A DNA stretch of 55,969 bases, from the NCBI GenBank assembly GCA_002245135.1, contig NGBS01000607.1:62001-117969 (forward strand), given 5' to 3'. Both the position numbers and the translations under genes were made by a program. Source of the stretch: Proteromonas lacertae (Eukaryota). Positions 1 through 41,633 of this stretch are shown here, in pieces (positions within the stretch are counted from its first letter, which is position 1; every line of letters starts with the position of its first letter). The notes under the pieces were generated by a model. It saw nothing but the letters and a program-made list of their open reading frames with translations. It did not search any database and had not been told where the DNA came from.

Positions 1-1194
1 TATTTTCTCTTGCATATTTAATAGCAGCTATTTTTCCTTCAATTCCTCTTTCTCCAAAACCACCTGGTACTAATAAACAATGAGCTGTTTTTAATATTTC
101 CCATGCCTCTTTATATCTTTCCTTTGCTTCTTCATCATCTTCTTTGGGTTTTTCTAAATCAGATGATTCAATAAATTCAATATTTAATCTATGTTCAATG
201 GTAAATGATGCATGTAATAATGCCTTTCTTACTGATAAATAAGAATCTTCTAATTTTGTATATTTACCTACAAATGCCACTCTAATTTCAGGTAAAGATT
301 CATCACCAATTATGCTGGTGATTTTATTCCATTCCTTTAAATCAATCTCTTTTCTTGGTTCTAATCCGAATTTCTTTAAAATAATTTGTGCAGCGTTTTG
401 ATTATTTAACATATTTGGAACACCAAATAATATTGGACAGTCGTGTAAAGACAAACAATTCTCAGTTGCAACATTTGTGAATAATGATATTTTTGACTTT
501 GTTTTTTCATCTAATTCAATTGGACATCTTAAACATAATATATCTGGGAATAAACCTACATTTCTTAAAGTAGCTACACCATGCTGAGTTGGTTTTGTCT
601 TTAATTCACCAATCATTGGAACTAAAGATACGAATCCTAAACAGGTATCTTCCTTTGGTTTTGATTGGATGAATTGTCTTATTGCTTCTAAGAAAACTGC
701 ACTCTCAATATCACCAACAGTTCCTCCTACTTCAATTAAACAAATGTCTGCTTTTCCTAACTCATCTATGTCTTTATCTGCTACTCTTTCAATCCATTCA
801 ATAATGCAATTTGTAACATGAGGTACAATTTGAACGGTATGACCATTATATACTCCTGCTCTTTCTCTTTCAATTACAGATTGGTAAATCTTTCCTGTTG
901 TGATATTATTATCTCGGCCTAATTTAACATCCAAAAATCTTTCATAATTACCTAGATCTAAATCACCTTCACAGCCATCATCACAAACAAAGACTTCACC
1001 GTGTTCATAAGGTGACATTGTGCCTGCATCAACATTCTGTGCATAATTAGAATTAAAATGTATACAAGGTAAGGATCAATCTTTATTGATGTGACTCTAA
1101 ATCCAGCCAATTTAAGTAGAACACCAATGGAACTGATGGTAGTTCCTTTACCAAGTCCACTAATTACTCCTCCAGGAAGAATGAAGTATTTCAT
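1..1194 (-). CDS. CTPS: CTP synthase (runs off window; 29-nt intron 1037-1065)
   Basis: [77 protein letters not shown] after removing a GT..AG intron. Confidence 0.97.
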
Positions 1195-1346
1195 AATGTC
1201 AAACAAAATGCAAATTCACAAGCCAAATCTATTTAAACATGTATTATGGAAATATAAACAGAAAAACAGTATTTAGAAGATGGAAAATTTTATATTACGA
1301 AATAAAAACACCTAATAACGATATATAATTTCTAACATCACAATCC

Positions 1347-3182
1347 TTATTCGAATAACAAATACTTACAGTTAGAATATGCAATACTCCTAATGGGTAA
1401 AGAATTCCTATATTCATCACAATCTATAAGCTCACTAGTTTTTTTCAACAAATCATTAACGGTAATTTCTGGATTTAATTCAATACAATTAGTATATACC
1501 TTTACAATCTTTGTATCTAATGGATTAACTGATTTCATAATATATTTTATTGTTTCTAGTAGAATTTGAATTAAAGATTCATTGGTAGTAGTTGTTTCTG
1601 ATAGTTGTGGTAACACTCTAATCACAAAATTGGAAGTAATATATATCGAAGATAATGGTAAAATATCTATTATACAAATTATAAAAAAATATGATTAAAA
1701 ATATACGATCAATATAATTAGAATGATTTGCAATATAATCATAACTATTTAACAAACATAAAATAGAATGAACACATTCACAATATTTCCATTGTATTAC
1801 ATTATTTTGACAATATAATATGAAATTATTCAAAGTATTTACTTCTCCATTATAAACTAAATAATATATATCATTATCTGTAGTATATCCAAATATTTCA
1901 CATATATTTGGATATTTCAATTTACAGTAATTCTTACATATTTCTTGTGGACTTACAGCGGATGTTATTGCTTCAGGAATTGTTATTTCTAATATTGAAA
2001 CTAAATTACAATTATATAATCCTTTCCTATAATTTGAATTATTACTATCATTCTCATCTTCATTATTATCTACACTATCAGCAGTAGTTGTCATTGTTGT
2101 AGCAATAGTTTCTATTGGTAATAATGTGATATTATCAAAAGATATATAATATTCTTCACTATCATCAACAATCCCATTGTTGTTGTTATTTATATCATTA
2201 GAATCTTCCATTTCTGAATCATTATTACTATTGTTATTGTATTGAGGAGAATCTATTTTTGGTGTTAAATGGACTACCTTTATCTTATTGTCATGACCTG
2301 ATGTTATTATTGTTGATTCATTGAATATACTTATACAGGATAAAGCATTTTGATGTAATTTCAATGTAAAAACTGTTTTGTTGGTGGATAGATTCCATAT
2401 CTATTATATAAAAAATAAGTATATATATATACTTTCATTATTCCATTTCTATCTCCAGATAATAGATATTCATTATTAAATATCTGTAATGATAAAATTG
2501 AGTTTTTATGACCTTCTAAACTACCAGTTTTTGTATAGGATAATAAATCCCATATTTGGATTACTGGTTGATTTTTCCCTCCACCAACATATAAATTATC
2601 ATCATATACTGCTAATGACATTACTGGTAATGCTGTAAATGTACTGAATTTCTCTAAAATTGAATAAGAGTCTTTTGAATAAATTGTTACTAATCCTTTT
2701 ATATTTCCTGAAATTATTGCTGTTTCTGAAGATGTTAATGCTGTTATTCGATAAGGAGATTGATCAGTTAGTAAATCAACTAATTCAAAATCTTTGTTGA
2801 ATGAATATATTCCATTATCACCTCCAAAATATAGATAATTATCACAATATAATCCACAAAATATTCTACCATCACAAGATCTTTCTTCTATTCGTTCCAA
2901 ATTCTGTAACTTTAATACTCTAATACACATATCACCTCCTGCTACTACAATTTTGTCATCAAATGCTAAAATTACATTAATAAACGATTTTGTAGATTGA
3001 TCTGTTTTTATTAATTTCCATTTATCGTCACCAATAGACTTCCATAGCTATAAATATAGAAACAATCAAAATACACAAAGGGTTTTATCTTTTCCTCCTG
3101 AAACAACAAATTCATTTATAGAAGCTAATACCCATATGTTATCTGTATGATGCTCAAGTGTAGATACTACCTGACACTGCAT
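1347..3182 (-). CDS. WD40-repeat protein with C-terminal degenerate kinase-like region; at least 3 short introns
   Basis: ATG 3182; WD motifs (VVSGGKDKTLCLWK, LEGHKNSILSL..LSGDRNG, ITSGHDNKIKV); later KLKYPNICEIFGY and HILPLSSIYI resemble decayed kinase subdomains; ORF pieces join across GT..AG introns. Confidence 0.75.
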
Positions 3183-3261
3183 ATTTCAAAATTTAGAATA
3201 TCAAAAAATTAGATCCGTTTTATGTTCGTTTTTGTTTCTTTTAAATCTGTTTATCTTTTAA

Positions 3262-6200
3262 ATGAGTGTGCTAAGTAGTAATACGTCCAACTTTGAATTA
3301 TATAATAGTCCTATAATTACCAAAATTAGAGGAATAAAAATGAAAAATGAAAAAGAATCAAAAAAACCAACTCCAAGTGTGATAAAGAAACCCATAAGAA
3401 CTCGTAAACAGACAGTAGGTATTTTAGAAAATGATGTAACAGCGTATAAATCTTCATTCATATTATTTTCAATAGTCGTATTACTTTAATGAAAGCTCTT
3501 AATACATCGTGCAATCCTGTTATTTTTAAATCAGTGGATGATGCAATTGACTATTTACATGCTGAATTTTGTGATTTAGTTATTTCTGACTTACAAATAC
3601 CCTTTAGAAATCCAACACCCAATGGTGTTGCTATATTAGAAACAGTAAATCAAATAGTATATATATATAAAGTATATACAAATGTCTAGATGAAAAAGAA
3701 AATGAATAATTTATACTCTTCTACTAATGATGATATACCCACTAGAACTTGTGTAATATTCACAATTGATAATGCAAAATATGAAACACAGAAATAGTAT
3801 ATATATATATATATATATATATATTGATTAGTATATTGGAAGAATCAATGAATAAAGGAATGATGGGATTTTTAATCAAGCCTTTCACAAGCATTATGGA
3901 ATTGGGTAATAAGTTAAACAGTATTTTAGATAAGATGAAGTCTTCCACTGATATATACTCTAAAATAATGTCTGTAGATTATTCATTAGGAAAAGTATAT
4001 TATTTTTTTTTATTATTATTTAGAATTCAATTCAATATGAAGAAAAAGTAGCACAAGAACTTGATATTTTAAATACACAAGCTGATCAATTAGCTCCAAT
4101 AGATCGTGAATATATATCCTGTAGAATGAGAAGAATGTCCTCTCGTAGTGGTTCAGAGTTCGCTGGTATTCAAGCAAGAGCCAAACGACTATCAAAAATT
4201 CATGAAAATGATAATGAAGATAATGAAGATAAAGAATATAGTGGTTATAATTATGGAAGTATGTTTGGTGAAAGTGATTTAGGCCCATTGCCTCCTATTG
4301 GAAGCGTAATGCATAGTAGATCATCACCACCATCGTATATTATATATATATATTATGTATATATTTTTTTAGAACTTCTCATTCTCATACAAGACCAAAA
4401 CCATCTTATTTCTCATTTGATAGAGTTGGTTCACAAAGATCGTCAAATGGTGATAATGCTAATGGTAGTAATAATGATAATAATAATTACAGAAAGGAAA
4501 AGAAGAATAATAAATTAGATAAGTTTTCATCTAAAATAGAAACATCCGAATCTGCTAAAGCTGATGCTAAATTTAAACATATTGGCACTCTTATTTCACC
4601 ATTCTCTTCTACTCCTTTATTAAATAGTAAATTTATATCTACAAATAAAGCGTCTAAGTTAAAAGAATCTAAAATATGTATTTTTATTTGTACTTCTTAT
4701 CTTTTTTATAGATAAAGAAACTTCAGAATATCTACCTGAAGTATTACAAATGAACTTAAGGCAATTTCATTTAAAACCTTTCGATAAGAATTCATCATTA
4801 TGTTTACAGCAACTATACAGAGGTTTTGATTTTTACAATAAAAAACAATACAAAAGTGCAATTAAATGTTATACAAAGGGAGTAGAAATGGCTCCAAAAC
4901 AGAAGAATGGTGATCCAGTTACCTCATTTGTTGCTGCTATTTTGTGTGATTTATATTATTGTAGAGGTTTAGCATATTATGGAGATCAGAATTATGATTA
5001 TGCATTAAAAGATTTTTCAGAGTGTATTAAATATAAACCAGAATTGTATATTGTGAAATTATATTTATTATTTTCTATATAGTGTTGATGTATTATTTAA
5101 TCGAGCTTTATTATATTCAAGAATTGGCAAATTTGATAAAGCAATACAAGATTTATCTAAAGCAATTGATCTAGAACCAGATGATATTGATTTATATCAC
5201 AATAGAGCATTAATATATAGAAGATTAGGAAAATTTGCAGAAGCACAAACAGATTATAATCAAATAAAAGCAATTAAGAAGAAGAAAGGTATTGAAGCTG
5301 ATGTATTTGTTGTTTTTATATATTGAATTTATAGAATTATACAATAAATGATGATGCAAGAAAGAGTATGGCAAAAATTGGAAGTAGAAGAAATAGTTTG
5401 GTTAAAAGTGCAACTGATATTGCTATTAAAGATACAGAAATTAATTGTATTTTATATATCAATTATACTCTACTAGTTGATACACATGGTCAATTATTCT
5501 CTCAACCATCTGATGTTACAACTGCTTTAAAAACTGAGCCAATGAGAAGATCAAAATTTGATATTGATTCTGTGATTGAATTATTAAAAAAGAATCTTGA
5601 ATTTGAAAATATGCCAAAAGCAAGATTACAACAAATAGCAAAAGTATTTTCCTCTTTTTTTTCTCCCTATTATTATTATTATTATTATTATCATATAGAG
5701 AGCAACATATGCATTTTTTAAGAACAATCAATATGTGTTTAAAATACATGAACCAACTGATTATTTAGGTTTTATTATCAATGGGACATTAGCAGTAACA
5801 ATGCCAAAAGGTGAAGATATTGTATAAGTATTTTTTATTATATGATTAGGGTGATGTGACAATCAATGTTTTACATAACTATGACACATTTGGTGCTAAT
5901 AGTTTGATGGATAATAAATTCACAAGATCTGCAAATTTATTAGCTAAAGAAGATACAGCAATATTGAAGATAGATACAAGTTTATTTAGAAGTGTAAATC
6001 TTAAAGATTGGTTCTTCAAAATACAAGATTATAAAGTGGGTTGGTTGAAGAAGATAGGAATATTTGATGTATATTTCTTTCGTTTTTATTTAATGTATTT
6101 ATTATAGAGTTTATCAACAAGTGAATTGAAAGCAATGGCTGGTGTATCTGTATTAAGAAGATTTGATAAAGGTGTTATACTATTGAAACAAAATGATTCT

Positions 6201-6899
6201 CCAACATGTTTATATATATTAATCAAAGGAACTTTAAGGGTAACAATTACACCTGATGTAGCTACAGAAATTGAAATTGAGTATAGGAAAACATCACATG
6301 AGTTAGAAACATTAAAATCCAAATATTCATATCATCATACTGGGTTAGTTAAATTAGGTACAACAGAATATGAATTAGAGTATATTTATTATATTTATTA
6401 TTAATATTCTAGAAAGATAAGATTAAGAAATAAACTAGCAGAGATAAAAGAGAGATGGGATCAAGCAAAACTTGAGCATCCATAGTATTTTTCATTTTTA
6501 TTTTAATATATTTTATTTAGTATTAATTTAAATAAAAGTGTTCATCTTCGTACAATATTCCCTCCAGCAATGTGTGGTGAAATTGCTATATTAGATCCTT
6601 GGGCAGGAAGTGAGAGAGTGACAGTAACAGCAGATACATCAGTGGAAGTGTTATTGATTGATAAATTCCAGATTGATTATAGATTGAAATGTAATGGTTT
6701 GCAGAATACAATATATAAGTTAATAAGAGAGAAAACTAAAGAGATTCCAGAATCTGGTGATGTTGTTACAGCGTATATTATTCCCTTTATCATAATTTGA
6801 TATAGATTGCAAACTGAAAAAGAATGGGCAAGAAAACGAAATAAGATAGTAAAATCCTTAAAGTTAAAAGATGATAAGAGTTTAGATTTAAAAATGTAA
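3262..6899 (+). CDS. Multi-exon signalling protein: response-regulator receiver domain + TPR repeats + two cyclic-nucleotide-binding domains
   Basis: REC: GILEND..DLVISDLQIP..NGVAIL..FST..GFLIKPF. TPR: AIKCYTKGVE, YYCRGLAY..ALKDFSECIKYKPE, YFNRALLY..AIQDLSKAIDLEP. cNMP: FGANSL..RSANL, CGEIAIL..ERVTVTADTSVEVLLI. Many ~30-nt GT..AG introns; TAA at 6897-6899. Confidence 0.8.
3798..3823. repeat. (TA)n microsatellite within an intron
   Basis: Run of TA dinucleotides directly after a GT donor. Confidence 0.85.
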
Positions 6900-7051: not shown

Positions 7052-7421
7052 ATATAATATAAATGTACTAAATCCTCTTTTATAAGGGTTAAGAGGAGGA
7101 TTAACCTCATTTAAATCCTCCATGAAAGAGGAAAGAGGATTTATAGATCCTCTTTGAAAGAGGATATATGATTTTTAGATCCTCTCTGAAAGAGGAATAA
7201 TAAAAATTTAAAAATCCTCATTATAAAAATATGAAAGAAAGAAAAAATGTTAAACCATATAGATAATGTTATTAAAAAATTAGAAATCCTCCATGATAGA
7301 ATTTTATGATGGACTATGATTTTTATCTGACCAGCCCCCCACTGTGTGGGGGGCCGAGGGGGGTTCCAGGCGGCAGGGGTTGAGGGAGGACTAGACTATA
7401 GTATAGACTAGAATAGATTAA
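7052..7421 (+). repeat. Left terminal inverted repeat (370 bp)
   Basis: Reverse complement of 28986-29356; the only differences seen are in the G-tract (GGGGGGTTCC vs GGGGGGGTCCC). Confidence 0.97.
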
Positions 7422-7548: not shown

Positions 7549-8921
7549 TTAATGAGCTCTTTCCAGTGTTTTGATCCTTTCATCAAGTTTCTTGATTCCT
7601 TCTTTCACATTATCTACATCCTTTTGAATTTCATCAATCTCTTCTTCATAATCCTCTTTTGCTTTCTTTATATCATTGAACTGTTTTTTGTAAGAAGCTT
7701 TATCAGGGTATTTTGATATATCCTTGGATTGATACTGTTCCTTATACTTCCTCATCTCTTCTAAAAGGTCATCCATTCTATCACTTTTCTTGTAGGCTTT
7801 ATTCATCTGATTTTTCTTATATTTCATCATTTCAGTCTTGAGGAATTTACAGGTGTTGATAGAAAGGATGTCAATGTATTTCACAAAGGATCCATTGTTG
7901 TACCACTGTTGAATTGAGGATTTTTTGTTGAGTATTATATCAAAGAGGTCTGAATCCTCATACTTCTTTGACAGATTTGGAGGAGGAATTTCAGCTACCT
8001 TTCTTTGTTTTCTCTTTGTTGTATCCTTCTTTTCTTTATCATTTCTTTCTCTCTTTTTAGGTAATAATGGTTTATCATCTTCACTATCAGTATCACTTTC
8101 ACTATCGACTATTTGAGGAATATCCTCTTTTTCAATTTCTTTTGTAACTTCACTGACTTTCTTCAATTTGGAAGGATTCTTAGGAGGATTTGTTTCAGAA
8201 GAGGATTTTGATATCTTCTTTACATCAAACTTGTGGAGGATTGAAGTCTTTTGTAATACCTCTTTAAATGAATCTGACTTGGGTTTGGGAGGAGGTACAG
8301 GAGGAGGATTTTCAAAATCATCATCATTAATCTCTCTACTATCCATTTTTTCTCGGTATTGTTTTCTACGATTGAAAGCATCTCTTGCAGCCATATGTTT
8401 TTCTCTATCTTTGTTATATTTATCTTTTTCAATTTCCTCTTTTTGACTTTCCTCTTTTTGACTTTCCTCTTTTTGACTTTCCTCTTTTTGACTTTCCTCT
8501 TTTTCAATTTCCTCTTTTATACCATAAATAGGATGTTTCTTTTTGATTTGGAGGATATCAATTTCATTTTCCTCTTTATCCTCCATTTCCTCCATTTCCT
8601 CTTTTTCCTCCATTTCCTCTTTATCCTCCATTTCCTTCATTTCCTCCTTTGCATTTTCTTTCCAAGTCTATTATAGATATATTATATAAAAAATATACTT
8701 CAGAATGATTTGCATCTAAATGATGAATGAAAACACATAACTGAGAATATAATCCTCGAACCGCAGCATCATCCTCATTGCTCCATTTTTCCCTGGGATA
8801 AAATGGTTGACTACCTAAGAACTTTGTGAAAGTCCTACAATATATTAATGAGGAAATCTTACTTAGTAGCATCTGCTGTAGCAATTGTTAATTTCAATAT
8901 TTCTGTAGTGTTGATTTCCAT
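7549..8921 (-). CDS. Viral orphan, ~437 aa, acidic/coiled-coil; two introns (8835-8862, 8668-8698)
   Basis: ATG 8921 MEINTTE..ATK; removing 28-nt GTAAG..GTAG and 31-nt GTATA..ATAG keeps frame into the 7549-8640 ORF; (KEESQ)4 and EEMEDK repeats. Confidence 0.75.
8434..8505. repeat. 15-bp coding tandem repeat (KEESQ)n
   Basis: TTTCCTCTTTTTGAC repeated about 4.5 times. Confidence 0.9.
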
Positions 8922-11635: not shown

Positions 11636-13012
11636 TTAAAAGTATTTACTAGCATATTCTACTTCGAAGTCATACTGTTTAGCCATTTTATCTAATTGAT
11701 CATAAGTGTATTTTGATCTTTCCTCTTCTGTCATATGAATTGGATGTTTAGTAACTCTAAATAGCGGTGCTACTCTTGGATTGTTTTGAACTATATTTTC
11801 TATATAGTGAGGATCACTTATATCAAGTACATTTCTAGTAGGAGCATTAACAACACTCCATTTTGGTTGAAAAGGTTGTGGACCTTCGAACATAGTTCCA
11901 ACAGTCTTAGTTTCAGGTGGAGGAGGAGGAAATGGTTTATAAACATCCGTTTGTGCATCTCTATATTGAGGAGGAGGATTCGTATTAGTTTCCTCTGTTC
12001 TATATTCTGGTCCTCTTGTAATTGGTTTAAAATCAACATTCTCTTGAGGACTTACACTAAATGTTCTTTGTGGAGGAGGTAAATCAACTGGAGGATTTAC
12101 CCAATGTTTCAATAACTGAGGTTCATCTGTTTGAGTATATCCAGATGTTTTTGATGGGAAATAATTCTTTGGTTCTATAAACATTTCTGATAATTTTCTT
12201 TCATTTACAAAAGAGGATATAGGAGTTTCTGATGTTCTTCCTAATGTTGGAATTGGAGTAGTAAATGTAGGTGTTTGTTGTACTGTAAGAGGTCTTTCTG
12301 GAGGAACAATATTGATTGAAGGATAAGGATTTTCAACTACTAGTTTATTGATCTTGATATTTTTTGAATTATCCTCATTTCTTTCATTTAAACCTATAAA
12401 CAAAATATAATATAAAAATTAAAAATTACTTTTTAAAAAACTACTTATATCCTTGTCTCCAACTCCATCTTTTAAAGGATCATAATTTAATCCTCCTGTA
12501 GGAATAGATTTGGGATCATACATTCTTGGTAATAAAGAATCTCTTATACTCCCTGTTCTTCCATAAGGAACACTTCTTGATAGAGGATCTGATGCACCAA
12601 ACATAAATCCTCCTTTCATCATCTTCAATTGATTTTCTAATCTTTGTTTTCCTAAATTTAATTTTATCATTTCTTGCTCTCTTTTGAAGATTTCATCTTT
12701 ATTATCCTCATTAACTGGTAGAGATTCCATTCCTTCATAGTCTGTTATTTTTTTATTAATATCTATTAAGTTGTTTTTCAGTTCATTTATTTTCTGTAAT
12801 TGGCTATCGAATTGCATTCCTTGTAAATGATCCAATCTAGATTGGTTAACATTGTATACTAATTCAGGAGCATCCATATCATATGCTAATCTCTTGAAGC
12901 TTTTATTTATTTTTCTTTTATACTTTCTTTTATGAGATCTCTTTCCTATTCTAGAAGATACTCTTTTTGCCAACTCAGTGATCAACTTATTAATAATATT
13001 TGATTTTTTCAT
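11636..13012 (-). CDS. Viral basic/Pro-rich putative core protein, ~446 aa, one 36-nt intron (12394-12429)
   Basis: ORFs 12419-13069 and 11636-12403 are in the same frame; the separating TAA lies inside GTAAT..TATAG; MKGG|F adenain-type site. Confidence 0.7.
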
Positions 13013-13596: not shown

Positions 13597-13998
13597 TTAA
13601 GAAGCGATTTTACTTAAAAGGAAATTATTTAATTTCATTGGTATACTAGTATGTGATCCTCCTTTTATACATACTGTACGATGTCTATGTCTTCTTACTC
13701 TACTGCCTCTTCTTCTACGTCTTCTACCTCCATTTACACCAAATCGAATTCCACCTCTTACTTTTCCTAATCCTAATACTTTCATTATATCCAAAGCTTT
13801 ACTTGCTACCTCAGTTACTTTACCTCTTCCTTTTTTTAATCCTCGAAACATTGTATTTGGTACTTCATGTCTTATAAGTTTACCCATCAAGCCAAACTTG
13901 AATCTTCCATTTGATCGTCCTCTTCGTCCTCTTCTTCTTCTTCTTGAAACGGATCTTCCTCTTCTATAACGACGTTTACGCCCACCTAAAATACTCAT
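13597..13998 (-). CDS. Arg-rich protamine-like viral core protein (adenovirus pVII/pX-like)
   Basis: Poly-R tracts separated by ILGG, VRGG, VNGG and IKGG motifs; divergent from the protease gene. Confidence 0.75.
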   Translation of the reverse strand: MSILGGRKRRYRRGRSVSRRRRRGRRGRSNGRFKFGLMGKLIRHEVPNTMFRGLKKGRGKVTEVASKALDIMKVLGLGKVRGGIRFGVNGGRRRRRRGSRVRRHRHRTVCIKGGSHTSIPMKLNNFLLSKIAS

Positions 13999-14073: not shown

Positions 14074-14643
14074 ATGAAACTACGTTTATGCTTTACAAAT
14101 AATAGAGTATATGGTCATGGTGAAAAGTCTAAGAAACCATATGATATGGCTTTATCTAATTATGATATCCCCAAAGTAATAAAATCAAATTTTCCTGAAA
14201 TGTTAAGCAGATTTGGAGGAGTGTTTTTATGGGATGAAATTAAAAGTATTCCTAAACTGAATTTGAATAAGTGGGGTGTGATAATATGTACTTTAAAAAG
14301 AAAGGATCCTCCTGAAAAGATAGGTCATTGGGTAAGTTTAGTAATTGATAATGATAAGCATCAATTCCTTTATTATGATAGTTTTGGAGAAAAACCTGAA
14401 CATACAAAATCCTTTGTTAAGTATATAAAGCATCTTAAAGCAGATCCTCATCAGGATTATAAGTTAAAGATAAATGGAGTTGTAAATCAAAGGATAACAA
14501 CATCTACTTGTGGATATCATGCTATTTTATTTTTAAGAGATATTTTACTGCATAACTTATCATTTATTGATGCAACAAATTTCAATACAGTAAAAGGAGA
14601 GGAAAGAGCAAGATTATTAGCCAACAAGTTTAGAAAAATATAA
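14074..14643 (+). CDS. Adenain/Ulp1-like cysteine maturation protease
   Basis: GHWVSL (His), YYDSFG (Asp), NQRITTSTCGYHA (Gln, Cys). Confidence 0.93.
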   Translation: MKLRLCFTNNRVYGHGEKSKKPYDMALSNYDIPKVIKSNFPEMLSRFGGVFLWDEIKSIPKLNLNKWGVIICTLKRKDPPEKIGHWVSLVIDNDKHQFLYYDSFGEKPEHTKSFVKYIKHLKADPHQDYKLKINGVVNQRITTSTCGYHAILFLRDILLHNLSFIDATNFNTVKGEERARLLANKFRKI

Positions 14644-14652
14644 TAATAATAA

Positions 14653-17600
14653 TTAATGTTTTATTTTAACTCTTTTTATTGGTTCTTCATTTACATCTTC
14701 CTCATCAAAAACAGCTTCACTTCTTTTTCTTTTTTGTCTATTATCCTCTTCTGCAAATACATCTTGAGGTTGTATATTTTGATCATCTAAATCATCATCC
14801 TCATCTTCTTCATCCATCTGATCATTATTATCATCTTGAATGATATCTCCTTCATCATTATAATATATTCTTCTTTTTTTCTTTTCCTCTTCATCTTCAT
14901 CATTACTATCTACTCTTCCTCTTTTAAGTTTAACAGGATGAAAATCTTCATCTTCATTCTCTTCTTGTACTGGTGGTGGAGGAGGTGGTGGAGGAGGAGC
15001 TTGTTCTTCAGGAGGAGGATTATTACTATTACTATTATCTATAGCACTTTTGAAATCTTCATCTGTTTTTTGAGCTACTGTTTTCATCATTTCACTCTTA
15101 TCTAATTCTTTAGTATAATGAGCTTCTTGAGGCTGCCAATTTTTACTTACATCATTAGAAACATCTTGATCTACTTTAGCTATTTCCTCTGCATCTAAAT
15201 TTAATACTTCCTTTTTATCTATTGTCATTCTATTCTCTTCTGGGTTGATTTGATAGTCTCCAAAAACATTTTGTAAATAATCATTATTAACATTAACTGT
15301 TTCTCTATTCAGCTCATTGGGTTGTCTTGCACCTCCATAATATCCTCTTGCTATTCTCTCTAAAGGTTGTTGAATTCCTATATAATGTCTCCATACACCT
15401 TTTTCTGCATCAGACATATTTCTATACTTAGTTAAGAACACATCATAATACATATTTTGCAATTGATGTTCCGTATATCCTTTTGGTAACCACCCTGGAG
15501 GTGGTAAATACATTCTATTTACACCTAAATTTCTTCTCCAAATATATGGCCATTCAGTAGGTTGCATATTTGGTGGAACATTTACATCAATAATTGTCCA
15601 TTGAGGATTATTTGCAGGATCTATACCTGGTAACATTTCAAATATAGGATGATCTTCTGGAATATATGGTAATCTCATATACCTAAATAATGCAGTAACA
15701 GGAGCATTAGGATATCTATCACAAGTCCAATCTTCTATTCTTAATATATCTGGAACATATCTATAATATCTACCATCACCATCTTGTAAGTGAGGACAAT
15801 ACCATTGTCCACTTCCCCAACTACCTTGTCTATTTGCAGGTAAATTTTGCCAAGTATATCTAGCAGCACGATGTCTCATAACTTTTAACATTTCAGCACT
15901 AATTGGATTACCGTATTCTTTAAAATCTAAAGGGTTTTCTATAGGTCCAAAGTCACCTTTAATATTTCCATTTTCATCTAAATTTTTAAAAATAGGATCA
16001 CCATATGCTCTTGAGTGTCCTGGAACAGCTGCATCAGCACCAGGTTGTTTCCATACTTCATTATTTCTTGCATTTCCTTGAATATTATTATTTTGATTAA
16101 AGAAGACTTTATTTTCCCAATAAGGTGCTGTAATATTTTGTATATCAGTATGATTAGGATTATTTAATTCTGGAGGTCTCATATAAGGCATTACTTTATT
16201 TTGATTTTCTACATTTCCTCTAATTGCTCTATAATTTTCATCTGTATCTCTTCTCCATGGGTTTGCATGTAATTTACCAGGCATATTAATAAACTGTCTA
16301 CCTCCTAATTGAGCATCAACATATCTAGGAATTGTAGGATACCAATACCATGCTCCTCTATAAGTAGGAGATGCATTTTGAGCATTTCCAAAGTAAGGCC
16401 AATCTAAAGGATTTCCAATATATAGTCTTGGTTTAGGATAATTTTGAGGATTATCATTAACTGCTTTATCAGTTACTCTCATTGATCCATACAATCTGTG
16501 TGGATATCTTCTATATACTCTATCATCAAACAGATAATCTAAACTGAAATTAGGTATAGGTATAGGATTATTTACTCTATATCCTGGTTGTTGATGTACA
16601 TTTATATCTAAATTACTTATCATCTTTGTAATATATACTATCATTCCTACTTCTGTTTTTAAGATTGCATGCATAGCTAAAGTTGTCAATTCATTTTGAT
16701 CTTGAGCAAATATAAGTTTACATAAAAGAAATTTCCTTGCAAAGGATAAAAGTTTGTATTTAAGATAATGTATTTTTTCCTTTGTAGTAGCTGGAACATA
16801 ACGAGCATCTCTATTATTATTATTAGGAAGATGTTGTTGAGCATTATTCATATTTGTCCACCAATGTGGAGTCCACCAATTTTGTCCAAAATGATTTGCT
16901 TGGTCATCAAATTGAGCTTGTCTATTTCTATTTATATCCTGATCATTTACATTTCTTTGATTCCATTTTGCTCCTAATGCTCTTCCATATTCTGCAGTTC
17001 CTGGTATATTAAAATTATGATTTAATGTTTTCTCAATATCTATTCTTAATTGAGCAGGATCTCTTCTTTGTCGTTTTTGATTTAATTCTCTATTAGGAAA
17101 CAAACTTTCATAATATTCTCTTAAAGTTACTAAATGTCTAACCACCATATACATCATATTATGAATAGCATAACATGCTACATTCTTTTTTTCATTCAAA
17201 TAAGCATCTCGTTTCCATAATTTAATTGTAGGAACAAATACTTTATTAATAAATCTGTAAAATCTATCATATACTAATCCAAAATCTAATTTTCTGAAAA
17301 ATTCACTTCCGTAAGTACCAATCCTCAAATCCTCTACATAAGCATTATCACCATCTACTGGTTGTGCACCATCGAATCTGTAATGATCTAATTTTTGGTA
17401 TATATAAAAAAGCCAATAATTGCAGTCCGCCTGTCTCATAATTATTTTTTCTACTGCTTTTCTGTAATTATGCCAATCTTGTTTCGTTTGAAAAGTAGTT
17501 GGTACATAATTTATATGTGTGAATTGATTATCAATAGGATAAACTCCTGCATCTGAATTAGCCATGGTACTCTGTCTTAAAACAGTCAAAAAATCATTAC

Positions 17601-17916
17601 GAAATAATGAAGAATGTCCATTTGTAATACGAGGATCGAAAGGCTTTTTATTAGCATTTAAGAATATAGTTCTTTTATCAGTTGGTGCTTCATATAACCT
17701 TCCTCTATCACTTAAACCAGGTCCCATTGGCACTCTCTGCTGAACAGCTAAATACCTATTAGTAGTAGGTATATTACGTCCTCTTTGTGCTTTATAAGCA
17801 CTATTGATATTTGGAGGATTTTGATTTACAGGAGGATAATTATTAGGATCAGGAGGATCTATTGCATTATTTTGTATCATATATGGAAATCCTAGAACAT
17901 TACGACGAACAGCCAT
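14653..17916 (-). CDS. Large viral orphan (1087 aa; N/Q/P/W/Y-rich, acidic C-terminus)
   Basis: Uninterrupted 3.2-kb ORF with no recognisable motif. Confidence 0.85.
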   Translation of the reverse strand: MAVRRNVLGFPYMIQNNAIDPPDPNNYPPVNQNPPNINSAYKAQRGRNIPTTNRYLAVQQRVPMGPGLSDRGRLYEAPTDKRTIFLNANKKPFDPRITNGHSSLFRNDFLTVLRQSTMANSDAGVYPIDNQFTHINYVPTTFQTKQDWHNYRKAVEKIIMRQADCNYWLFYIYQKLDHYRFDGAQPVDGDNAYVEDLRIGTYGSEFFRKLDFGLVYDRFYRFINKVFVPTIKLWKRDAYLNEKKNVACYAIHNMMYMVVRHLVTLREYYESLFPNRELNQKRQRRDPAQLRIDIEKTLNHNFNIPGTAEYGRALGAKWNQRNVNDQDINRNRQAQFDDQANHFGQNWWTPHWWTNMNNAQQHLPNNNNRDARYVPATTKEKIHYLKYKLLSFARKFLLCKLIFAQDQNELTTLAMHAILKTEVGMIVYITKMISNLDINVHQQPGYRVNNPIPIPNFSLDYLFDDRVYRRYPHRLYGSMRVTDKAVNDNPQNYPKPRLYIGNPLDWPYFGNAQNASPTYRGAWYWYPTIPRYVDAQLGGRQFINMPGKLHANPWRRDTDENYRAIRGNVENQNKVMPYMRPPELNNPNHTDIQNITAPYWENKVFFNQNNNIQGNARNNEVWKQPGADAAVPGHSRAYGDPIFKNLDENGNIKGDFGPIENPLDFKEYGNPISAEMLKVMRHRAARYTWQNLPANRQGSWGSGQWYCPHLQDGDGRYYRYVPDILRIEDWTCDRYPNAPVTALFRYMRLPYIPEDHPIFEMLPGIDPANNPQWTIIDVNVPPNMQPTEWPYIWRRNLGVNRMYLPPPGWLPKGYTEHQLQNMYYDVFLTKYRNMSDAEKGVWRHYIGIQQPLERIARGYYGGARQPNELNRETVNVNNDYLQNVFGDYQINPEENRMTIDKKEVLNLDAEEIAKVDQDVSNDVSKNWQPQEAHYTKELDKSEMMKTVAQKTDEDFKSAIDNSNSNNPPPEEQAPPPPPPPPPVQEENEDEDFHPVKLKRGRVDSNDEDEEEKKKRRIYYNDEGDIIQDDNNDQMDEEDEDDDLDDQNIQPQDVFAEEDNRQKRKRSEAVFDEEDVNEEPIKRVKIKH

Positions 17917-17976: not shown

Positions 17977-18929
17977 ATGCAAAAGAAGAAAGATTTTAAT
18001 AATATTGAACGTAAGCTTATAGTAAATACAAAAGATTATGATCCCAAACTTCCTCATGATGAATACCATAGAACCATACGTGTTCCCAGCGTTGATGAAA
18101 GATACCATAATATTACATTATTGTCTGCATCGATTAGTAACACATTTCCAACAATCCAAAGAGACATTAATAACTACTTTAAAATCCATATGCATGGAGA
18201 AGAATACGATATAGAACCTACTACAGGAGAAATAAGACATTTACAAGCTATATCATATGATAAAAATATTTACATTCCTTTAGGATACTATACAGAAGAT
18301 GAAATCCTCTCTATTATAAATGAAGGATTTTTGAGAAGATTTTCTTATATTGAAGATGATATAATGGTACCAAACGAACAAATTGATCCTGCACAAGTTA
18401 TAAGTATTAATAGAAAGAATAAGTTACAGTTAGACTATAAGATAAAGTATGTATTTAAAGTAGGACCAGTACCTCAACCTCAAAATTTTTATGGGTAGAC
18501 AATATTTGGATGGAACTCCCTAATAATATATTCAAATTATTCGGTGAAGATCATAGAGATGAAAAAATAGTTTTGTGGAAAAAGAAATATGATGAAAGTG
18601 AAATAACTTTTGAAAAAGTAATTAAAGGGATTATTTCAGTTCCTCAAAGTTATGAATTTCCGTGTAGACCATCTTTAATATCAGTGAGTCAATTGCAGTT
18701 AAGATTTGATACTGTTAATCAGGATGAAGATTCTAATGTTTTGGCAAATATACCTATTGAAAGATTTGAGGAACCATTTATAGTTTATAATAATCCTAAT
18801 CCTAAATTAACTGCCAGAAGGATAGGTTATCATCAAAATGATTTAATAACAGTATCCCTTTCTCAGGAGGATGGATATGGAATTAGTTTGGATGAAGTAA
18901 CTTTATGTTTAGAAATCCTTATTTTTTAA
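17977..18929 (+). CDS. Minor capsid (penton, single jelly-roll) protein, split by a -1 frameshift near 18483-18490
   Basis: SASISNTFPTI..IPLGYYTEDEIL..LFG..VLANIPI..ITVSLSQEDG..LCLEI pattern; directly upstream of MCP; two ORFs in adjacent frames. Confidence 0.75.
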
Positions 18930-18973: not shown

Positions 18974-20329
18974 ATGTCATTATCAATTCCTACATCACAA
19001 AAATATTCAAGTGATATTCAAGTTTTTAAACCAGAGCAGCACTGGATACGTATTACTCCTAATCAAACAAGAGATGTTATTACTTTGCAGGAAAGTAATT
19101 CCTCCAACACTGTTACTTTTGAGTTATCTCCTGATAATTGTATTAATTTATCCCAATCTTATATGGAATGGGAACAAAAATTCTATTGGGATAAAGTAGA
19201 GGATCTTCAGAGTATAGAAAATCCTACTGTAATCCTCTTTAATACCTTCAATTTATCCACAATTAGAGTGTATAACATTACTGGTTCTTTAATATGTGAT
19301 TTGGATTTTCAGTATAATGATTACAGAGATATTGCAGCACAATTAGCTAAGAAAGTAATTATTGATGATAATTATTTTGATCAAAATAGTAAATTATTTA
19401 CTGGTATACATAAAGAATGGAATAACCAAGCAGGAAGATGGGAGATAAAAAATAGAACAGTAACTGGATTTAGTAGTGGTAATGTACCAACAAAAGATAT
19501 TCCTATGGAAGGTAATGCAAATATATGCAAAGTAAGAATGATATTAGGAGAATTATACAATACTATATTAAGTTTATCCAATGATATGTTCTTTGGAGAG
19601 AAGATTTTCATTCAATTTACTTTTGGACCTAGAGAGAAAACATGTATGGCAGAAAAAGCTGCAGGAAATCATGATATGATACAACCGAAAGTAGATTTAT
19701 TTAATTTAGAATTATATGCTTGTTACAATACTGATCCTGATTGTAATGCCAATACTTTAAATTGGGTATATCGTCATCCTATTGATTTTAATGATTTCAA
19801 TATTGTCCAAACAACAGTTACTAATTCAACAGCTACTAATCATTTTCAGTACAATTTTACAATTGATTCTAGTATTGGTCCTTATGTAAAGTATATATTA
19901 TATACTGCAGTAGATAATGATGGACAAATAGTATCTTTTGATCATCCTGATACTAGATTTAGATGGTTATTAAATGATTTTGTTTACACTCCAGATTTCT
20001 TATACGTAAACAATCAGGATTCTTATTACCAAATGCAAAAAATGCTTACAACAACCTATTTTGACCAATATAATACTAAACCATTCCCCAAAAAATTCAT
20101 TGAAATTTTGAAGTTTACTGCTGATAATAATTTGACTAACATTAAGTCCAGAGGAGGAAGACCATTAGACCAACAACTTAAAATAACCTTTGATTGTTAC
20201 AATATAAATTTTGGTCCAAAAAGAAAAAATGATTTACAACACGATATTACTTCAGTAACTCATCGATTCTATATCATCACAGGAAGAATTTTAGAAGTAG
20301 GAATGAGAGGAATCCAAAGGGTAATATAA
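18974..20329 (+). CDS. Major capsid protein (double jelly-roll)
   Basis: 451 aa, beta-rich; VTFEL..INLSQSYMEW resembles the Polinton MCP N-terminal motif; lies between mCP and ATPase. Confidence 0.8.
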   Translation: MSLSIPTSQKYSSDIQVFKPEQHWIRITPNQTRDVITLQESNSSNTVTFELSPDNCINLSQSYMEWEQKFYWDKVEDLQSIENPTVILFNTFNLSTIRVYNITGSLICDLDFQYNDYRDIAAQLAKKVIIDDNYFDQNSKLFTGIHKEWNNQAGRWEIKNRTVTGFSSGNVPTKDIPMEGNANICKVRMILGELYNTILSLSNDMFFGEKIFIQFTFGPREKTCMAEKAAGNHDMIQPKVDLFNLELYACYNTDPDCNANTLNWVYRHPIDFNDFNIVQTTVTNSTATNHFQYNFTIDSSIGPYVKYILYTAVDNDGQIVSFDHPDTRFRWLLNDFVYTPDFLYVNNQDSYYQMQKMLTTTYFDQYNTKPFPKKFIEILKFTADNNLTNIKSRGGRPLDQQLKITFDCYNINFGPKRKNDLQHDITSVTHRFYIITGRILEVGMRGIQRVI

Positions 20330-20376: not shown

Positions 20377-20928
20377 ATGGGGTTATACTCGTTTAAATTA
20401 AAAGGCTCTCGGGGTACATCAAGTAAAAGAAGAAGAAGAAGAGGACGAAGAAGAAGATATAGAGGAGGAAATTGGTTAAAAGGAAAAGGTATTTTAAGTG
20501 GATTAGCAAAATTAATACCTTTTGCAGGTAATGCTATTTCTCATGTAATTGAGAAACAAGGATATGGTAGAAGAAGAAGAAGAAGACGATGCAGAGTAAG
20601 AGGAGGATCTTTTAAAGATGTTTTTGCAAAAATTCCCCAAAATAGAAGAAATCCTCCTTTAGCAAGATTAATAAGTCCACTTAAAGGAAATGATCCTAAA
20701 ACATGGGGTCCTCCAAGAACAGGAAAAGGTTTTGGTGATACAATTAAAAAGATAGGAAAGTATATGCATGATCATAAAGTATTAAGTAATGGAATTAAAA
20801 TAGCTAATTCAGTTTTAAATCCTTGGAGTACAGTTGCTAATATAGCATCTAAAGGATTGAGTAAAGTTGGTTTAGGTAGAAGAAGAAGAGGATGTATAAG
20901 GAGAAGAAGAACTAGACGTAGAAGATAA
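20377..20928 (+). CDS. Arg-rich core protein with amphipathic helices (pX/pVI-like)
   Basis: Three poly-R blocks, YRGG/LKGKG/VRGG sites, helix GILSGLAKLIPFAGNAISHVI. Confidence 0.75.
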   Translation: MGLYSFKLKGSRGTSSKRRRRRGRRRRYRGGNWLKGKGILSGLAKLIPFAGNAISHVIEKQGYGRRRRRRRCRVRGGSFKDVFAKIPQNRRNPPLARLISPLKGNDPKTWGPPRTGKGFGDTIKKIGKYMHDHKVLSNGIKIANSVLNPWSTVANIASKGLSKVGLGRRRRGCIRRRRTRRRR

Positions 20929-20971: not shown

Positions 20972-21721
20972 ATGTATCGTATTAAAAAAATAAATAACAT
21001 ATCTGTAGAACCTTTGGAAAAGCCAAAGAAAAGAAAGAAGCCTTCGAAGAGTGTTTTAGGATATGAGTATTTTGAGGAACCTTTTAGTAATATTTTCATT
21101 GTAGCAAAAAAGAAATCTGGTAAGACAACTTTAATTTATAACATTTTGAAAAACATCTTATCCTCAGAGGAAGAACAAAAAGTATTCTTTTTTGTAAGTA
21201 CTTTAGATAATGATATTATATATGAAAAGATATTTCAATTATTAAAGTATAATGGTATTTACTATGAAAAATATGATTCCTTAATAAATGAAGAAGAAGG
21301 ATACAACAATTTACAAAAAGTAATGAAGGATTTGGATCCTGTAGATAAGAGTAATATGACGTATCCTGAAAATATATTCATCTTTGATGATATTTCCTCT
21401 GAATTGAAGATGCCTATTATTAATACAATTACTAAACATAATAGGCATTATAAATCCAAAACAATATTTAGTTCTCAGTATATAACAGATTTGTCTCCTC
21501 AAGCCAGATTGCAAATTGATTACTGTTTAGTTTTTAAAGGTTTAACTGAAGACAATTTAAGAAGATTGTATGAATCCTTGGAATTATGGCCAGATTCTTT
21601 TGAGGATTTTAAGAAAGTGTATAATGCAGTCGTTAATTCCTCTCCCTATGCTTTCCTCTATATAGATAGAGCTAAATCAGAGTTTAGGATAAATTTCGAT
21701 AAAGTATTGGAAGAAAAATAA
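20972..21721 (+). CDS. A32/FtsK-like DNA packaging ATPase
   Basis: Walker A IVAKKKSGKTT, Walker B IFIFDD, RHYKSKTIFSSQ motif. Confidence 0.93.
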   Translation: MYRIKKINNISVEPLEKPKKRKKPSKSVLGYEYFEEPFSNIFIVAKKKSGKTTLIYNILKNILSSEEEQKVFFFVSTLDNDIIYEKIFQLLKYNGIYYEKYDSLINEEEGYNNLQKVMKDLDPVDKSNMTYPENIFIFDDISSELKMPIINTITKHNRHYKSKTIFSSQYITDLSPQARLQIDYCLVFKGLTEDNLRRLYESLELWPDSFEDFKKVYNAVVNSSPYAFLYIDRAKSEFRINFDKVLEEK

Positions 21722-22518: not shown

Positions 22519-23799
22519 TTACCATAAATGTCCTGCTCCATATATACTACGTGAGTATAGAGGATTAGGTCTACTTATCCTTCCTGATCTTGTCCTTCTA
22601 ACTTTATTAACAAAATCAAGTGCTGCATTATTATCCTTATAATCCTGTACTGCTTGTTCTACAGGATTTACTGGAACTGTTTCAGTAACAGGTTGTAACT
22701 GAGGATCATCATTAACAACTACTCCTGGAGGAACATAATCTGGATCTCTCCTATACTGTTGTAACTGTTTTCCTATTGATCTGTAATACTGTTCATTCTG
22801 TTTAGCAAAGGATGGATGCGAATCTGAAACATTTAATAATTCGTACTCTTTAAATCTTTTAGTAACTGTTCTTCCTTCATCATCAAATACATCAATCTCA
22901 TATGAAAAAGGATTTTTCCTCTTTATAGTATAAACCTGATCACTATACCTATGAGACTTATCTAATTTTGATCTAGGTCTTTCCCTAACTCTCACTTTAT
23001 CTCCTACATTAAAAGTAGATCCTCTCTTTGCTCTGAGATTCCTATTATAATTCCTCGATTCATGGAGGAATTTCAATTGTAGACTCATATCATCATACAC
23101 TTCATTTGGAGTATATCCTTTAATTCCTGAATGAGGAGTGTTGTTATAATCCTTTACAATCCTCTGGATAAAATTATTTAAATCAGCTTGAGTTTTTATT
23201 TCATTTTTCATATCTTGAGTACTTCCTCTATAGTAAATAAGATCCTTTATTGTCCTAACTGCTCTGTCCAAAATTCCCATAATATTATGTTCATCTGTAT
23301 CCTTAAAATGAATCTTTATTTTATACCTTTTACAAAAACTTTGAAATTCATTACTTATAAATACACCTTCTCTATCACATATAATAGAAGCAATGAATAT
23401 CATATATTCCTCTTCTCCTTCAAAAATTCCTTTTATCCTATTCTGAAATACAAACCTTGTAAAAGCGTCTGCAAAAGCTAAACCACTTCTACTTGCTAAA
23501 GTATATACCCAAACTTTCCTCGATACAACATTAATAATGAATAAGGATGGAGGACCATCATTTCCTTGAAAAAAAGCAAAATCAATCATGAAAGTTCCTG
23601 GTACTTTAATAATAGTATACCTTAATTTTTTAGGACGAACTCTTTTAGATGCTAATTGATATCGTGGAGAAGAATATGCAAAAGTCTTAGCTTCATTTTC
23701 ACTATAACCATAGTGAGTACAAATATCGATGAAATCCTTTGCAGATAGATAGTTATATTGAGAATAAAGATCTTGTAAAGTCTTTTTTGGAATATCCAT
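22519..23799 (-). CDS. Retroviral-like (rve) integrase
   Basis: MIDFAF..ICDREGVF..GILDRAVRTIK..YNNTPHSGI..TPNEV..FNVGDKVRV; no chromodomain seen. Confidence 0.93.
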   Translation of the reverse strand: MDIPKKTLQDLYSQYNYLSAKDFIDICTHYGYSENEAKTFAYSSPRYQLASKRVRPKKLRYTIIKVPGTFMIDFAFFQGNDGPPSLFIINVVSRKVWVYTLASRSGLAFADAFTRFVFQNRIKGIFEGEEEYMIFIASIICDREGVFISNEFQSFCKRYKIKIHFKDTDEHNIMGILDRAVRTIKDLIYYRGSTQDMKNEIKTQADLNNFIQRIVKDYNNTPHSGIKGYTPNEVYDDMSLQLKFLHESRNYNRNLRAKRGSTFNVGDKVRVRERPRSKLDKSHRYSDQVYTIKRKNPFSYEIDVFDDEGRTVTKRFKEYELLNVSDSHPSFAKQNEQYYRSIGKQLQQYRRDPDYVPPGVVVNDDPQLQPVTETVPVNPVEQAVQDYKDNNAALDFVNKVRRTRSGRISRPNPLYSRSIYGAGHLW

Positions 23800-24976: not shown

Positions 24977-27900
24977 ATGAAGAATAAAAGGAAAAGAACT
25001 GATAAGCAGAAGAAGTATGCATTAAATGCAAAAACTCATTTATTAGAAAAGATGTTAGAAAATGACGATAGTACTTCAGAATATTTCATTAATGCAACAA
25101 GTAAAAAAAGGAAAATAAGCGAATCCTCCTATATGAGGAACTTAGACAATAATCCTCGAGTGCATATTATAAATCCTGATTATGGAATGTATTTTGGTGG
25201 AGGAGAGGATGATATGGATGATGATAGAATTCATCCTCCAAGAGGAAATTTGGAGGAAAGAATAAAAAAATATGAATTAGAAGGACAATCCTCTGAAGGA
25301 GTGACAAGGAAATATGTAACTAATTTGAAGGATGTTCATCTTCTTACTCCAGAAGATTATTATAACTTCATTGTAGATAAAACAGATGTTCCTTTAAGAA
25401 TAAGTGAAATAGCACATGAAATGAAAAATATTAAAGTATATTTTGTATTTTGGTATGTTTATACATCCTCAGAGGATGAAACTGGTGAGGAAGTATCCTT
25501 ATTTCATAATACAAGGAATATTTTAATTAATGAGTATGACAATCCTGCATCAGTAGCAGCTAAAATGCGTTCTCTATTTCATTCTATAAATGAAGAAGAT
25601 TTTTCTCCTCCAGAATCTGGTTTAATATTCCAATATATGGATTTAATGGAAACTCATATAAATCAATATCAAATTATGGCAGGAGCAGGAGGATCCTATA
25701 AGATTCCTGATATATTTAATAATAAGTACTGTTTGGATCCTTGTGAAAATAAGGATGATGATAATATGGATTGTTTTTGGAGAGCAATTAATTCATGTTT
25801 AAAGAAACAGCATTTACCTCAAATAGAACCTAATAGTGAATTTATAACAGTACCAGTAGCACCTGTTAATAATCTTGATATAGATAAAGTAGAACAAACT
25901 TATGATATAAATATAAACATATTTGCAATTGATGAAGAGGAAAAGGATAAACCTAAAATCCTTCCTTTAAGATATAGTTTAATTGATAAGAATGTTTGTA
26001 ATCCGGTTATAAATTTATTGTTCCTTCCTAATAATAATGATACTACTGATGAAGTAATTACAGGTCATTATTGTGCAATTAAATCCTTGAATAGAGTTTT
26101 CAGCTTAGTATTTAATGTAATATACAAAAATGTTAATGAACCTTTGGTATGTCCTTATTGTCCCTTTTATACTTATAATTCAAAATCATATGCAAATCAC
26201 AAATCAGTAAATTGTCAAAGTCCTGATAATGTTATAAGGATCTTTCCTGATAAGGATAGTGAAGAAGCTTTTATGAAATTTGAACATTCTAACAGAGAGG
26301 ATATGATTCCTGTAGTTATATATTATGATACAGAAGCATATATTGTCCCTATTGATAATTCTCAGGAAAAGACAAAAACATTAAGATCCTTCAAAAATGA
26401 ACATAAATTAAAATCATACTGTTTATATGTAGAGAGTAAAATTCCTCAAATAAAATCTACAACCATTATGAATGTTAAGAAATTAGAAGATGAAAATTTG
26501 GAAAAAGAATTTATGGAAGATATAATGACAATTTATAAAGATGTAAAACACTTATACAATATAATTAATTTATATCCTAAAGATTGGGATCAAAATGAGG
26601 AAGATTTAGCAATCCATATGAGTAAAACAGTTTGTGATTTTTGTAAGAAACCTTTTACACCTTTTGATCCTAAAGTCCTTCATCATAACCATTTTACAGG
26701 AAAGTACATTGCTTCAATTCATTCTAAAGAGAACTTAGCAATTAAAGTAAAAGGATACAAGATTCCTGTTATTGGACATAATGCAATGAGATATGACCAA
26801 CATTTCATCATTAGAGAACTTGCAGAGATTGCTAAACAGACTGGTTTAAATTTGGATATCCTTCCTTCTACTGATGAAAATTATAAAGCTATATTCTTTG
26901 ATAGATTAATGTTTATTGATTCATACCAGTTCCTTTCTGAAAATTATCGAGTTTAACAGAAGATTTGAAAATTACAGCTTTAGAATTGAATTGTAAAAAA
27001 GTAAAGTTTAAAGTAATCTATGATAACTTTCCTGAATTAGATGAGGATATTATTGATAAGTATCTTCTTCAGAAAAATTACTTTCCTTATGAGTATGTTG
27101 ATTGTTTGGAAAAATATGATAATCAATTTAAGGATTTGAAAATAGAGGATTTCTATTCTAGTTTATCCAATTCAACAATAACAGAAGAGGAATATAAGTT
27201 TGCAATGCAAGTTAATAATATTCTATTTGAAGGAAAAGCTTCTATAGGAGAATATTGTAACTTTTATCTTTGCATTGATGTTTATATCCTTTGTTCAGTA
27301 TTTGAGGATTTTAGACAGAACATCTTTAATCACTTTCATATTGATCCTTGTTGGTATGTTTCAATTCCTAGTTTATCCTTAGATTTATTCTTAAAAGAAA
27401 GTTCAGTTAAGATAGAGTTAATTCATGAACCTGAAATATATGATTTCATTCTCAATGGATTATATGGAGGATTATCCTACATAGGAAAAAGAAAAGAAGA
27501 TGCTAATAATTTCTATATGAAGGATTATGATCCTAAGAAACCTTCAAAGTTTATTGTCTATCAAGACATGAATTCCTTATATCCTTCAGTAATGTATTTG
27601 TGTAAACTTCCTATAAGGAATTATCATCTTTATTGTTATGAGGATCCTGGTTGTCCTAAACTTCATGAGATATTAGATTCTACCAAATTCTATGATAAGA
27701 ATGATTCCTTTGAAACTACAGGATATATGTTAGAAGTAGATATAGAACCTATTTCCTATTATAAGGAATATTTAAGAGAATATCCTATTTTACCATCAAG
27801 AAGGAAAATTAGCTATGATGAATTATCAGATATTCAAAAAGAAAAATTAGAAGTATTATACTCTCAAAAAGAGGATGATCAAAAGAATCCTAATGTTCAA

Positions 27901-28985: not shown

Positions 28986-29356
28986 TTAATCTATTCTAGT
29001 CTATACTATAGTCTAGTCCTCCCTCAACCCCTGCCGCCTGGGACCCCCCCTCGGCCCCCCACACAGTGGGGGGCTGGTCAGATAAAAATCATAGTCCATC
29101 ATAAAATTCTATCATGGAGGATTTCTAATTTTTTAATAACATTATCTATATGGTTTAACATTTTTTCTTTCTTTCATATTTTTATAATGAGGATTTTTAA
29201 ATTTTTATTATTCCTCTTTCAGAGAGGATCTAAAAATCATATATCCTCTTTCAAAGAGGATCTATAAATCCTCTTTCCTCTTTCATGGAGGATTTAAATG
29301 AGGTTAATCCTCCTCTTAACCCTTATAAAAGAGGATTTAGTACATTTATATTATAT
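28986..29356 (-). repeat. Right terminal inverted repeat (371 bp)
   Basis: Reverse complement of 7052-7421. Confidence 0.97.
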
Positions 29357-29361
29357 AAAAT

Positions 29362-41119: not shown

Positions 41120-41303
41120 GAACGTGATTCTATAGGCCAAAATGAAGATACAAATGCTAAGAGGAAGATAGAACATTCCAAATTTCAAAACCTAATTTCA
41201 AATATCTTATATAATAGAAAATTTATAATATATATAAATAATACTAGTAATATCTACAAGATTAGTATATATGGCGAAAACCAAGAAGACAATTTGATAT
41301 TTA

Positions 41304-41516: not shown

Positions 41517-41633
41517 ATGTGAATAACTATCATAGTGAGTTGAAAGATGATATAAGAATAATTAAATTGTTGGGTGGAGTAAATAAGGAATATTTTAAAG
41601 GAATGAATTATCCCAACAATAGCTGTTATATTA

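Follow-up and report, generated by a model that had tools for sequence, protein, structure and literature searches.

The window analyzed here, a stretch of 55,969 nucleotides from Proteromonas lacertae (contig NGBS01000607.1), carries a minus-strand reading frame that ends at a stop codon and then continues open in the same frame. The question raised by this locus is whether a 36-nt segment around the stop codon is an intron, and whether its retention or removal decides which of two proteins is made. An initial annotation had proposed such a switch, and the structural features that it listed agree with the sequence: a frame-preserving minus-strand segment that begins with GTAAT, ends with TATAG, and contains the TAA of the upstream ORF. 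This TAA, the stop codon of the 197-aa ORF, is at 12421–12419, and a TGTTT motif also lies within the segment (12402–12398). Retention had been expected to yield a basic protein of about 197 aa, and the ORF indeed encodes 197 aa with a pI of 9.8. The Pro-rich part, described as about 250 aa without an early ATG, is 251 aa long, contains 14.7% Pro, is acidic, and reaches its first in-frame ATG only at 12184, which is residue 70. Both ORFs share one frame, which is open from the upstream stop codon through 11636. When the segment was deleted in silico, a 446-aa frame with no internal stop codon was obtained, and the predicted junction sequence was reproduced. The junction peptide suggested for proteomics, SSFLKSLNER, is thus correct as a sequence; it contains an internal Lys and is therefore not a tryptic peptide. 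The features of the locus and of its surroundings are summarized in Table 1.

Table 1. Features of the locus and of the element that contains it (positions in the window).
Feature	Position	Strand	Remarks
Candidate phase-1 GT..AG intron	12394–12429	-	36 nt; GTAAT at the 5' end, TATAG at the 3' end
197-aa ORF (short, retained form)	12419–13012	-	Putative exon 1 is 13012–12430
Putative exon 2	11636–12393	-	251-codon Pro-rich frame, conserved from its start
In-frame TTG within the segment	12401–12403	-	Corresponds to the start called for homolog P0006; alternative start without AUG
Out-of-frame ATG, 15-codon ORF	12385–12387	-	Directly past the acceptor; frameshift rival, rejected
Integrated Polinton/Maverick	7052–29356	.	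22.3 kb, intact-looking
Protein-primed family B polymerase	24977–28941	+	PF03175, E 7e-18; frame switch near 26945
rve integrase	22519–23799	-	PF00665, E 1.8e-6; bit score 28.5, short of the curated threshold (32.6)
Double jelly-roll major capsid protein	18974–20329	+	Model pLDDT 58; Foldseek
C48/C57-type cysteine protease, likely the maturation protease	14074–14643	+	PF02902, E 6e-7
Packaging ATPase candidate	20972–21721		Walker A/P-loop; terminase-ATPase match, E 1e-5; FtsK/HerA class unconfirmed
Probable core-protein precursor, Arg-rich, four xxGG motifs	13597–13998	-	Assigned from context

The element that contains the locus is a Polinton/Maverick, as judged from its terminal inverted repeats (TIRs), flanking duplication, polymerase, integrase, capsid protein, protease, and ATPase. 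The TIRs (7052–7367 and 29041–29356) are at least 316 nt long with 1 mismatch. A 6-bp duplication, AAAATA, flanks the element on both sides, and because it is AT-rich, the exact ends of the element are uncertain. The top Foldseek matches of the capsid model were the capsids of an iridovirus, PBCV-1, and PRD1, with E values of 4e-8 to 3e-7 and low TM-scores of about 0.2–0.25. The gene with the segment is one of several small genes that follow one another on the minus strand; the Arg-rich xxGG gene, which itself adjoins the protease gene, lies two genes upstream of it. The locus is a real and conserved anomaly in what is probably the virion-gene block of a Polinton. Elsewhere in the element, a second Arg-rich protein (20377–20928, plus strand) has repeated xxGG motifs like the one in Table 1, and both are likely to be core precursors processed by the protease. 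A 1087-aa ORF rich in Asn, Pro, and Trp, whose tail is acidic and which matched no Pfam family, occupies 14653–17916 on the minus strand. Frame switches at homopolymer runs were seen in the polymerase (~26945), in a putative minor capsid gene (17977–18929, at ~18490), and in the host gene CFAP58 (~35325). These three look like long-read assembly errors, and the element may therefore be intact.

The window has a GC content of about 27%, and its cellular genes, which include CTP synthase and the flagellar gene CFAP58, contain many GT..AG introns of 27–55 nt. Such a gene content points to a flagellated protist, perhaps a stramenopile of the gut. Just past the element, an open stretch on the plus strand (~29357–32803) runs into a host gene for a He_PIG/HRM surface protein; the element is inserted just before it and may sit in or near the 5' end of that gene. 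Additional inverted repeats occur at 40494–46289 and 48424–50375, with arms of 973 nt (41634–42606/44546–45518), 252 nt, and 42–44 nt, and these may represent further mobile elements or fold-backs of the assembly. Small ORFs clustered at 47522–55421 appear by eye to be glycosyltransferase-like.

To compare the segment with host introns, a model was built from 21 predicted introns chosen by hand at 1037–6805 and 35089–35427. Twelve came from a frame-continuity search that required GTA, and nine from inspection, two of which replaced longer calls. Their donors read GTAT[A/T] in 21/21 cases, an unusual consensus compared with GTAAG/GTRAG, for which the partial requirement for GTA in the selection has to be kept in mind. 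The host introns were 27–55 nt long (median 33, n = 21), and the 36 nt of the segment fall within this range, as expected of an intron. Under the model, which includes a term for T-richness, the segment scored 17.3, compared with leave-one-out scores of 6.8–21.9 for the host introns, and it ranked third among the 3,855 GT..AG pairs of 25–60 nt in the element, which also favors the intron; the pairs at ranks 2 and 5 share its acceptor. Among the 13 same-strand gene junctions, only that of the segment gave a high-scoring in-frame fusion (one other scored 3.7). The first gene of the element (7549–8921, minus strand) has two apparent short introns, the removal of both of which leaves one open frame of about 437 aa. 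One of these (8668–8698, 31 nt) has the full host consensus and is rank 1 in the element, in keeping with an intron reading in the element; the other (8835–8862, 28 nt) begins with GTAAG and has a low score.

The stricter scoring, in which the splice sites alone were evaluated against the spacer background, was less favorable. The donor scored 2.4, lower than all 21 host donors (4.7–8.7), and the acceptor scored 3.8, higher than only 3 of the 21 host acceptors. The donor also departs from the host consensus (GTAAT versus GTAT[A/T] in all 21), and an equally good in-frame acceptor arose in 14.7% of 2,000 shuffles of the 27 nt that follow the stop codon; these results, with the donor score, speak against an intron. 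In summary, the GT..AG ends, length, and composition of the segment are those of a host-type spliceosomal (U2) intron, the donor consensus is not, and the segment exceeds chance only in part.

Homologs of the upstream ORF formed three clusters with 65–74% identity. All three end in the same column as the S-N-F of the present protein, with S-N-Y, S-N-Y, and S-K-L followed by the stop codon. This agreement supports the intron, since a phase-1 donor of the form A|GT AA encodes S followed by N or K, with which the protein ends of the homologs are compatible; two alternative donors, at 12444 and 12441, were rejected because they were not compatible with all of these ends. The shared S-[N/K]-x-stop end is what a common donor with a retained stop codon would give, and it could also come from conservation of the protein. 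AGT accounts for 34% of the Ser codons in the element, which weakens the case for the intron. The stop codon falls at the third intron codon in 4/4 sequences, and the codon before it varies (F, Y, or L). When the host introns were read in the same phase, the first stop codon was at that position in only 1 of 21, which suggests that the short form is used. We read the kept stop codon as a probable sign that the short product is under selection, a reading compatible with a switch as well as with two separate genes.

For the downstream part, a search of 1.84 billion representatives with exon 2 gave a single match, P0006 (284 aa, E 1.9e-10), which is 43% identical to exon 2 over residues 7–91, mostly before the first ATG at residue 70. 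After its called start, P0006 has its next Met only at residue 240. Since the conservation lies mostly before the ATG, and P0006 also lacks a Met over this length, the stretch is likely to be translated without a nearby ATG. The conserved part has no ordinary start here, and it therefore needs splicing, readthrough, or a non-AUG start. The long frame aligned with P0006 through the junction, with an upstream-only score of 29 that was reached by 0/5,000 shuffles. For both P0042 and P0006, the length of the longest contig is 6654, a hint that the two may be neighbors and that the gene order may be kept.

Some features of P0006 count against the intron. All eight members of its cluster were called from M-F-I-G, which corresponds to TTG-TTT-ATA-G at the 3' end of the segment. 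The F-I-G is identical between P0006 and the translation of the segment, and none of the 21 host introns has a start-like codon at the equivalent position. Because the called start of the homolog falls on TTG here, separate initiation and readthrough remain candidates. The intron reading requires that TGTTT be conserved at the M-F-I-G position in the relatives; if both TGTTT and the TAG acceptor were kept there, a bacterial-style gene caller would give the M-F-I-G start. No fused homolog was found among 1,069 candidates of 346–2,000 aa, a weak test that also counts against the intron, and homolog DNA was not found in viral contigs, metagenome contigs, prokaryote genomes, or phages.

The motifs around starts and stops bear on whether exon 2 begins on its own. 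A TTTCT/TTCTT box, a motif picked post hoc, precedes 18 of the 19 starts in the element (shuffle mean 7.5) but is missing ahead of all three candidate starts of exon 2 (TTG 12403, ATG 12387, and ATG 12184). The missing box supports the view that exon 2 would not start on its own. A TTCT box lies ahead of all six divergent starts of the element and is likely to be a promoter or initiator element. The spacers of the element (7052–29356) also share a motif of the TCATT..TTTCTT(G)TTGTTTTT type. A second motif picked post hoc, TGTT[T/G], follows 15 of 20 stop codons in the element, this one included (shuffle mean 6.1), whereas it follows only 3 of 10 host stop codons; it precedes 1 of the 6 divergent starts. 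The idea that TGTTT acts in 3'-end formation comes from the TGTTTGTT element of human Blastocystis (PMC4159000, PMC5608401). According to the part of PMC12129017 considered here, this downstream element is absent outside human-associated strains and from other stramenopiles, and the proposed role of TGTTT is therefore speculative. Given this report and the host count, a poly(A) signal of the Blastocystis type was downgraded as an explanation.

Of four explanations, a putative intron with two isoforms, as initially proposed, is the best supported, mainly through the homolog ends and the missing box. The segment would be a spliceosomal intron with a weak donor in a Polinton gene. We consider it fairly probable that the segment is an intron; that it is spliced only partially, with both isoforms made, has a probability just short of even. 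The host spliceosome would remove the segment from only part of the transcripts. Transcripts that keep it would encode the basic, helical 197-aa protein, and those that lose it would encode a 446-aa protein, consisting of the same protein plus the Pro-rich, acidic tail of 251 aa. The conserved stop codon and the off-consensus donor suggest that both forms would be made, and the splicing ratio may set the amounts of two virion-associated proteins. More speculatively, the TGTTT in the segment could also direct the 3' end of a short mRNA, with splicing and cleavage in competition. An isoform switch in this fuller sense, in which retention or cleavage inside the intron yields the short form and splicing yields a minor long form, is a tentative reading. 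We are equally cautious about its extension to relatives, namely that protist Polintons of one lineage conserve a very small intron that carries a stop codon and has a deliberately weak donor, and that it switches between a short basic virion protein and a less abundant long form extended by the Pro-rich part.

The rival that survives best, which we nevertheless regard as rather unlikely, is that the locus encodes two separate proteins, the Pro-rich one starting at the codon aligned with M-F-I-G, and that the GT..AG ends arose by chance in an AT-rich spacer. Initiation would then occur at UUG, 15 nt past the stop codon, by reinitiation or on a transcript of its own, or else the relatives would have an ATG where TTG stands here. 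The uniform start of the eight cluster members, the identical F-I-G, the fixed end of the upstream ORF, the shuffle result of 14.7%, and the weak donor all accord with two proteins. However, the TTCT box is absent upstream, and a 15-nt spacer would be shorter than all 12 other spacers (29–125 nt). Moreover, gene callers write TTG as Met, and UUG is a poor start codon in eukaryotes. A start-codon substitution is itself unlikely, since a single mismatch over 316 bases of the TIRs makes this copy appear young.

Slightly less probable again is an ordinary intron that is always spliced, such that the 446-aa protein is the sole product and the 197-aa form merely an artefact of annotation. This shares the support for an intron in general, that is, the conservation in P0006, the rank under the model, and the missing box, but it sits poorly with an off-consensus donor and with a stop codon that is fixed at the third intron codon in 4/4 sequences against 1/21 host introns.

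Readthrough, which we judge improbable, would have the UAA occasionally decoded, and the resulting protein of 458 aa would contain a short insert of hydrophobic residues. The single frame across a conserved stop codon, the L/M-F-I-G conserved as though coding, and the absence of an upstream box of its own are consistent with it. Nevertheless, UAA with a U after it is poorly suited to readthrough, no stable RNA structure was found downstream (z +0.51), and the insert does not differ from the spacers in T-richness; a search of the segment region gave no Rfam match. Finally, a frameshift, in which the downstream gene starts at ATG 12387 and a nearby A-run carries a one-base error, is highly improbable and largely refuted by the P0006 alignment, in which the frame of this ATG scored -15 (shuffle p 0.64) against 29 for the long frame; the normal spacer length and the homopolymer switches elsewhere in the window would suit it, yet the TTCT box is absent, and a homopolymer artefact does not explain the locus.

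With regard to function, the 197-aa ORF has a basic N-terminal helix (17 K/R in residues 1–45), a predicted coiled-coil middle, and a conserved C-terminal segment with a GG motif. In the structure model (pLDDT 63), the protein is helical and its C-terminal third is disordered. One of its GG motifs is conserved in 4/4 sequences, the other is not, and the motifs may mark a putative protease site. The initial annotation had called the product a core protein of a structural gene, a label for which the databases gave no backing: the 197-aa protein matched no family in Pfam or PHROGs, had no usable match in the Atlas, and its model found nothing at E ≤ 0.001 among viral models in Foldseek (best E 0.18). 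Exon 2 gave only sub-threshold leads of 0.75–0.76 in the Atlas (DUF5899 at 0.76), which were not used. These searches showed no homology in sequence or fold to a known core or minor virion protein of the adenovirus type (pVI, pVII, or pX). A virion role may be proposed from the charge of the basic N-terminus, the conserved GG, and the nearby Arg-rich genes and protease. A pVI-like role was considered because of a PPxY motif in exon 2; the motif is absent from P0006, and this role was therefore not adopted.

Polintons/Mavericks and MELD viruses of non-animal eukaryotes share with the present element the TIRs, pPolB, rve integrase, adenain-type protease, packaging ATPase, and double jelly-roll capsid, and such an element with unrecognizable virion proteins was reported in Blastocystis data, according to the passages of PMC8502044 considered here. 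In these passages, "intron" occurs only with regard to group II maturases, and "splic" does not occur. The two ORFs of the present locus match no named adintovirus protein. Another DNA virus integrated in a protist, the Punuivirus endogenous giant virus, has GT-AG introns resembling those of its host in 61 of 506 genes; it differs in being a giant virus, its introns are enriched in a latency module set apart from the virion genes, and the passages considered describe no stop-containing isoform switch (10.64898/2026.10.09.758095). In the parts consulted on cryptophyte Polinton-like viruses, introns occur, as here, in a small gene beside the capsid block, but these are self-splicing group I introns of 309–376 nt (PMC12220804), unlike the 36-nt segment without an Rfam match. 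No spliceosomal introns in such elements are mentioned in the passages considered of the Halocafeteria preprint (10.64898/2026.07.28.741278) and of PMC8502044. A literature search that covered titles, abstract openings, and selected passages found no spliceosomal or stop-containing isoform switch in a Polinton.

The locus had also been called adenovirus-like, which holds as an analogy; no sequence homology was found. The adenovirus late unit, in a related lineage, uses alternative splicing and polyadenylation by which the host spliceosome makes several products from one structural region. Here, in contrast, a single 36-nt intron of host type would extend one protein at its C terminus. Most genes of the element are preceded by a box of their own, and nothing points to a shared leader.

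To our knowledge, Polintons have been annotated with gene callers of the bacterial kind, nearly always as arrays of ORFs devoid of introns. In the present case, a caller of this kind turns what is likely a single gene into two and may supply a start that does not exist. If a separate start or readthrough proved true, the locus would still represent a conserved non-canonical translation event. If the conserved splice switch is true, these elements would use the host spliceosome for regulation and would do more than tolerate introns. Adenoviruses are believed to descend from Polintons, and within the Polinton–adenovirus lineage the switch would set a small, testable precedent of alternative splicing for the Polinton side. 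It would represent a minimal counterpart of adenovirus late splicing, with spliceosome-controlled isoform stoichiometry in a Polinton virion gene.
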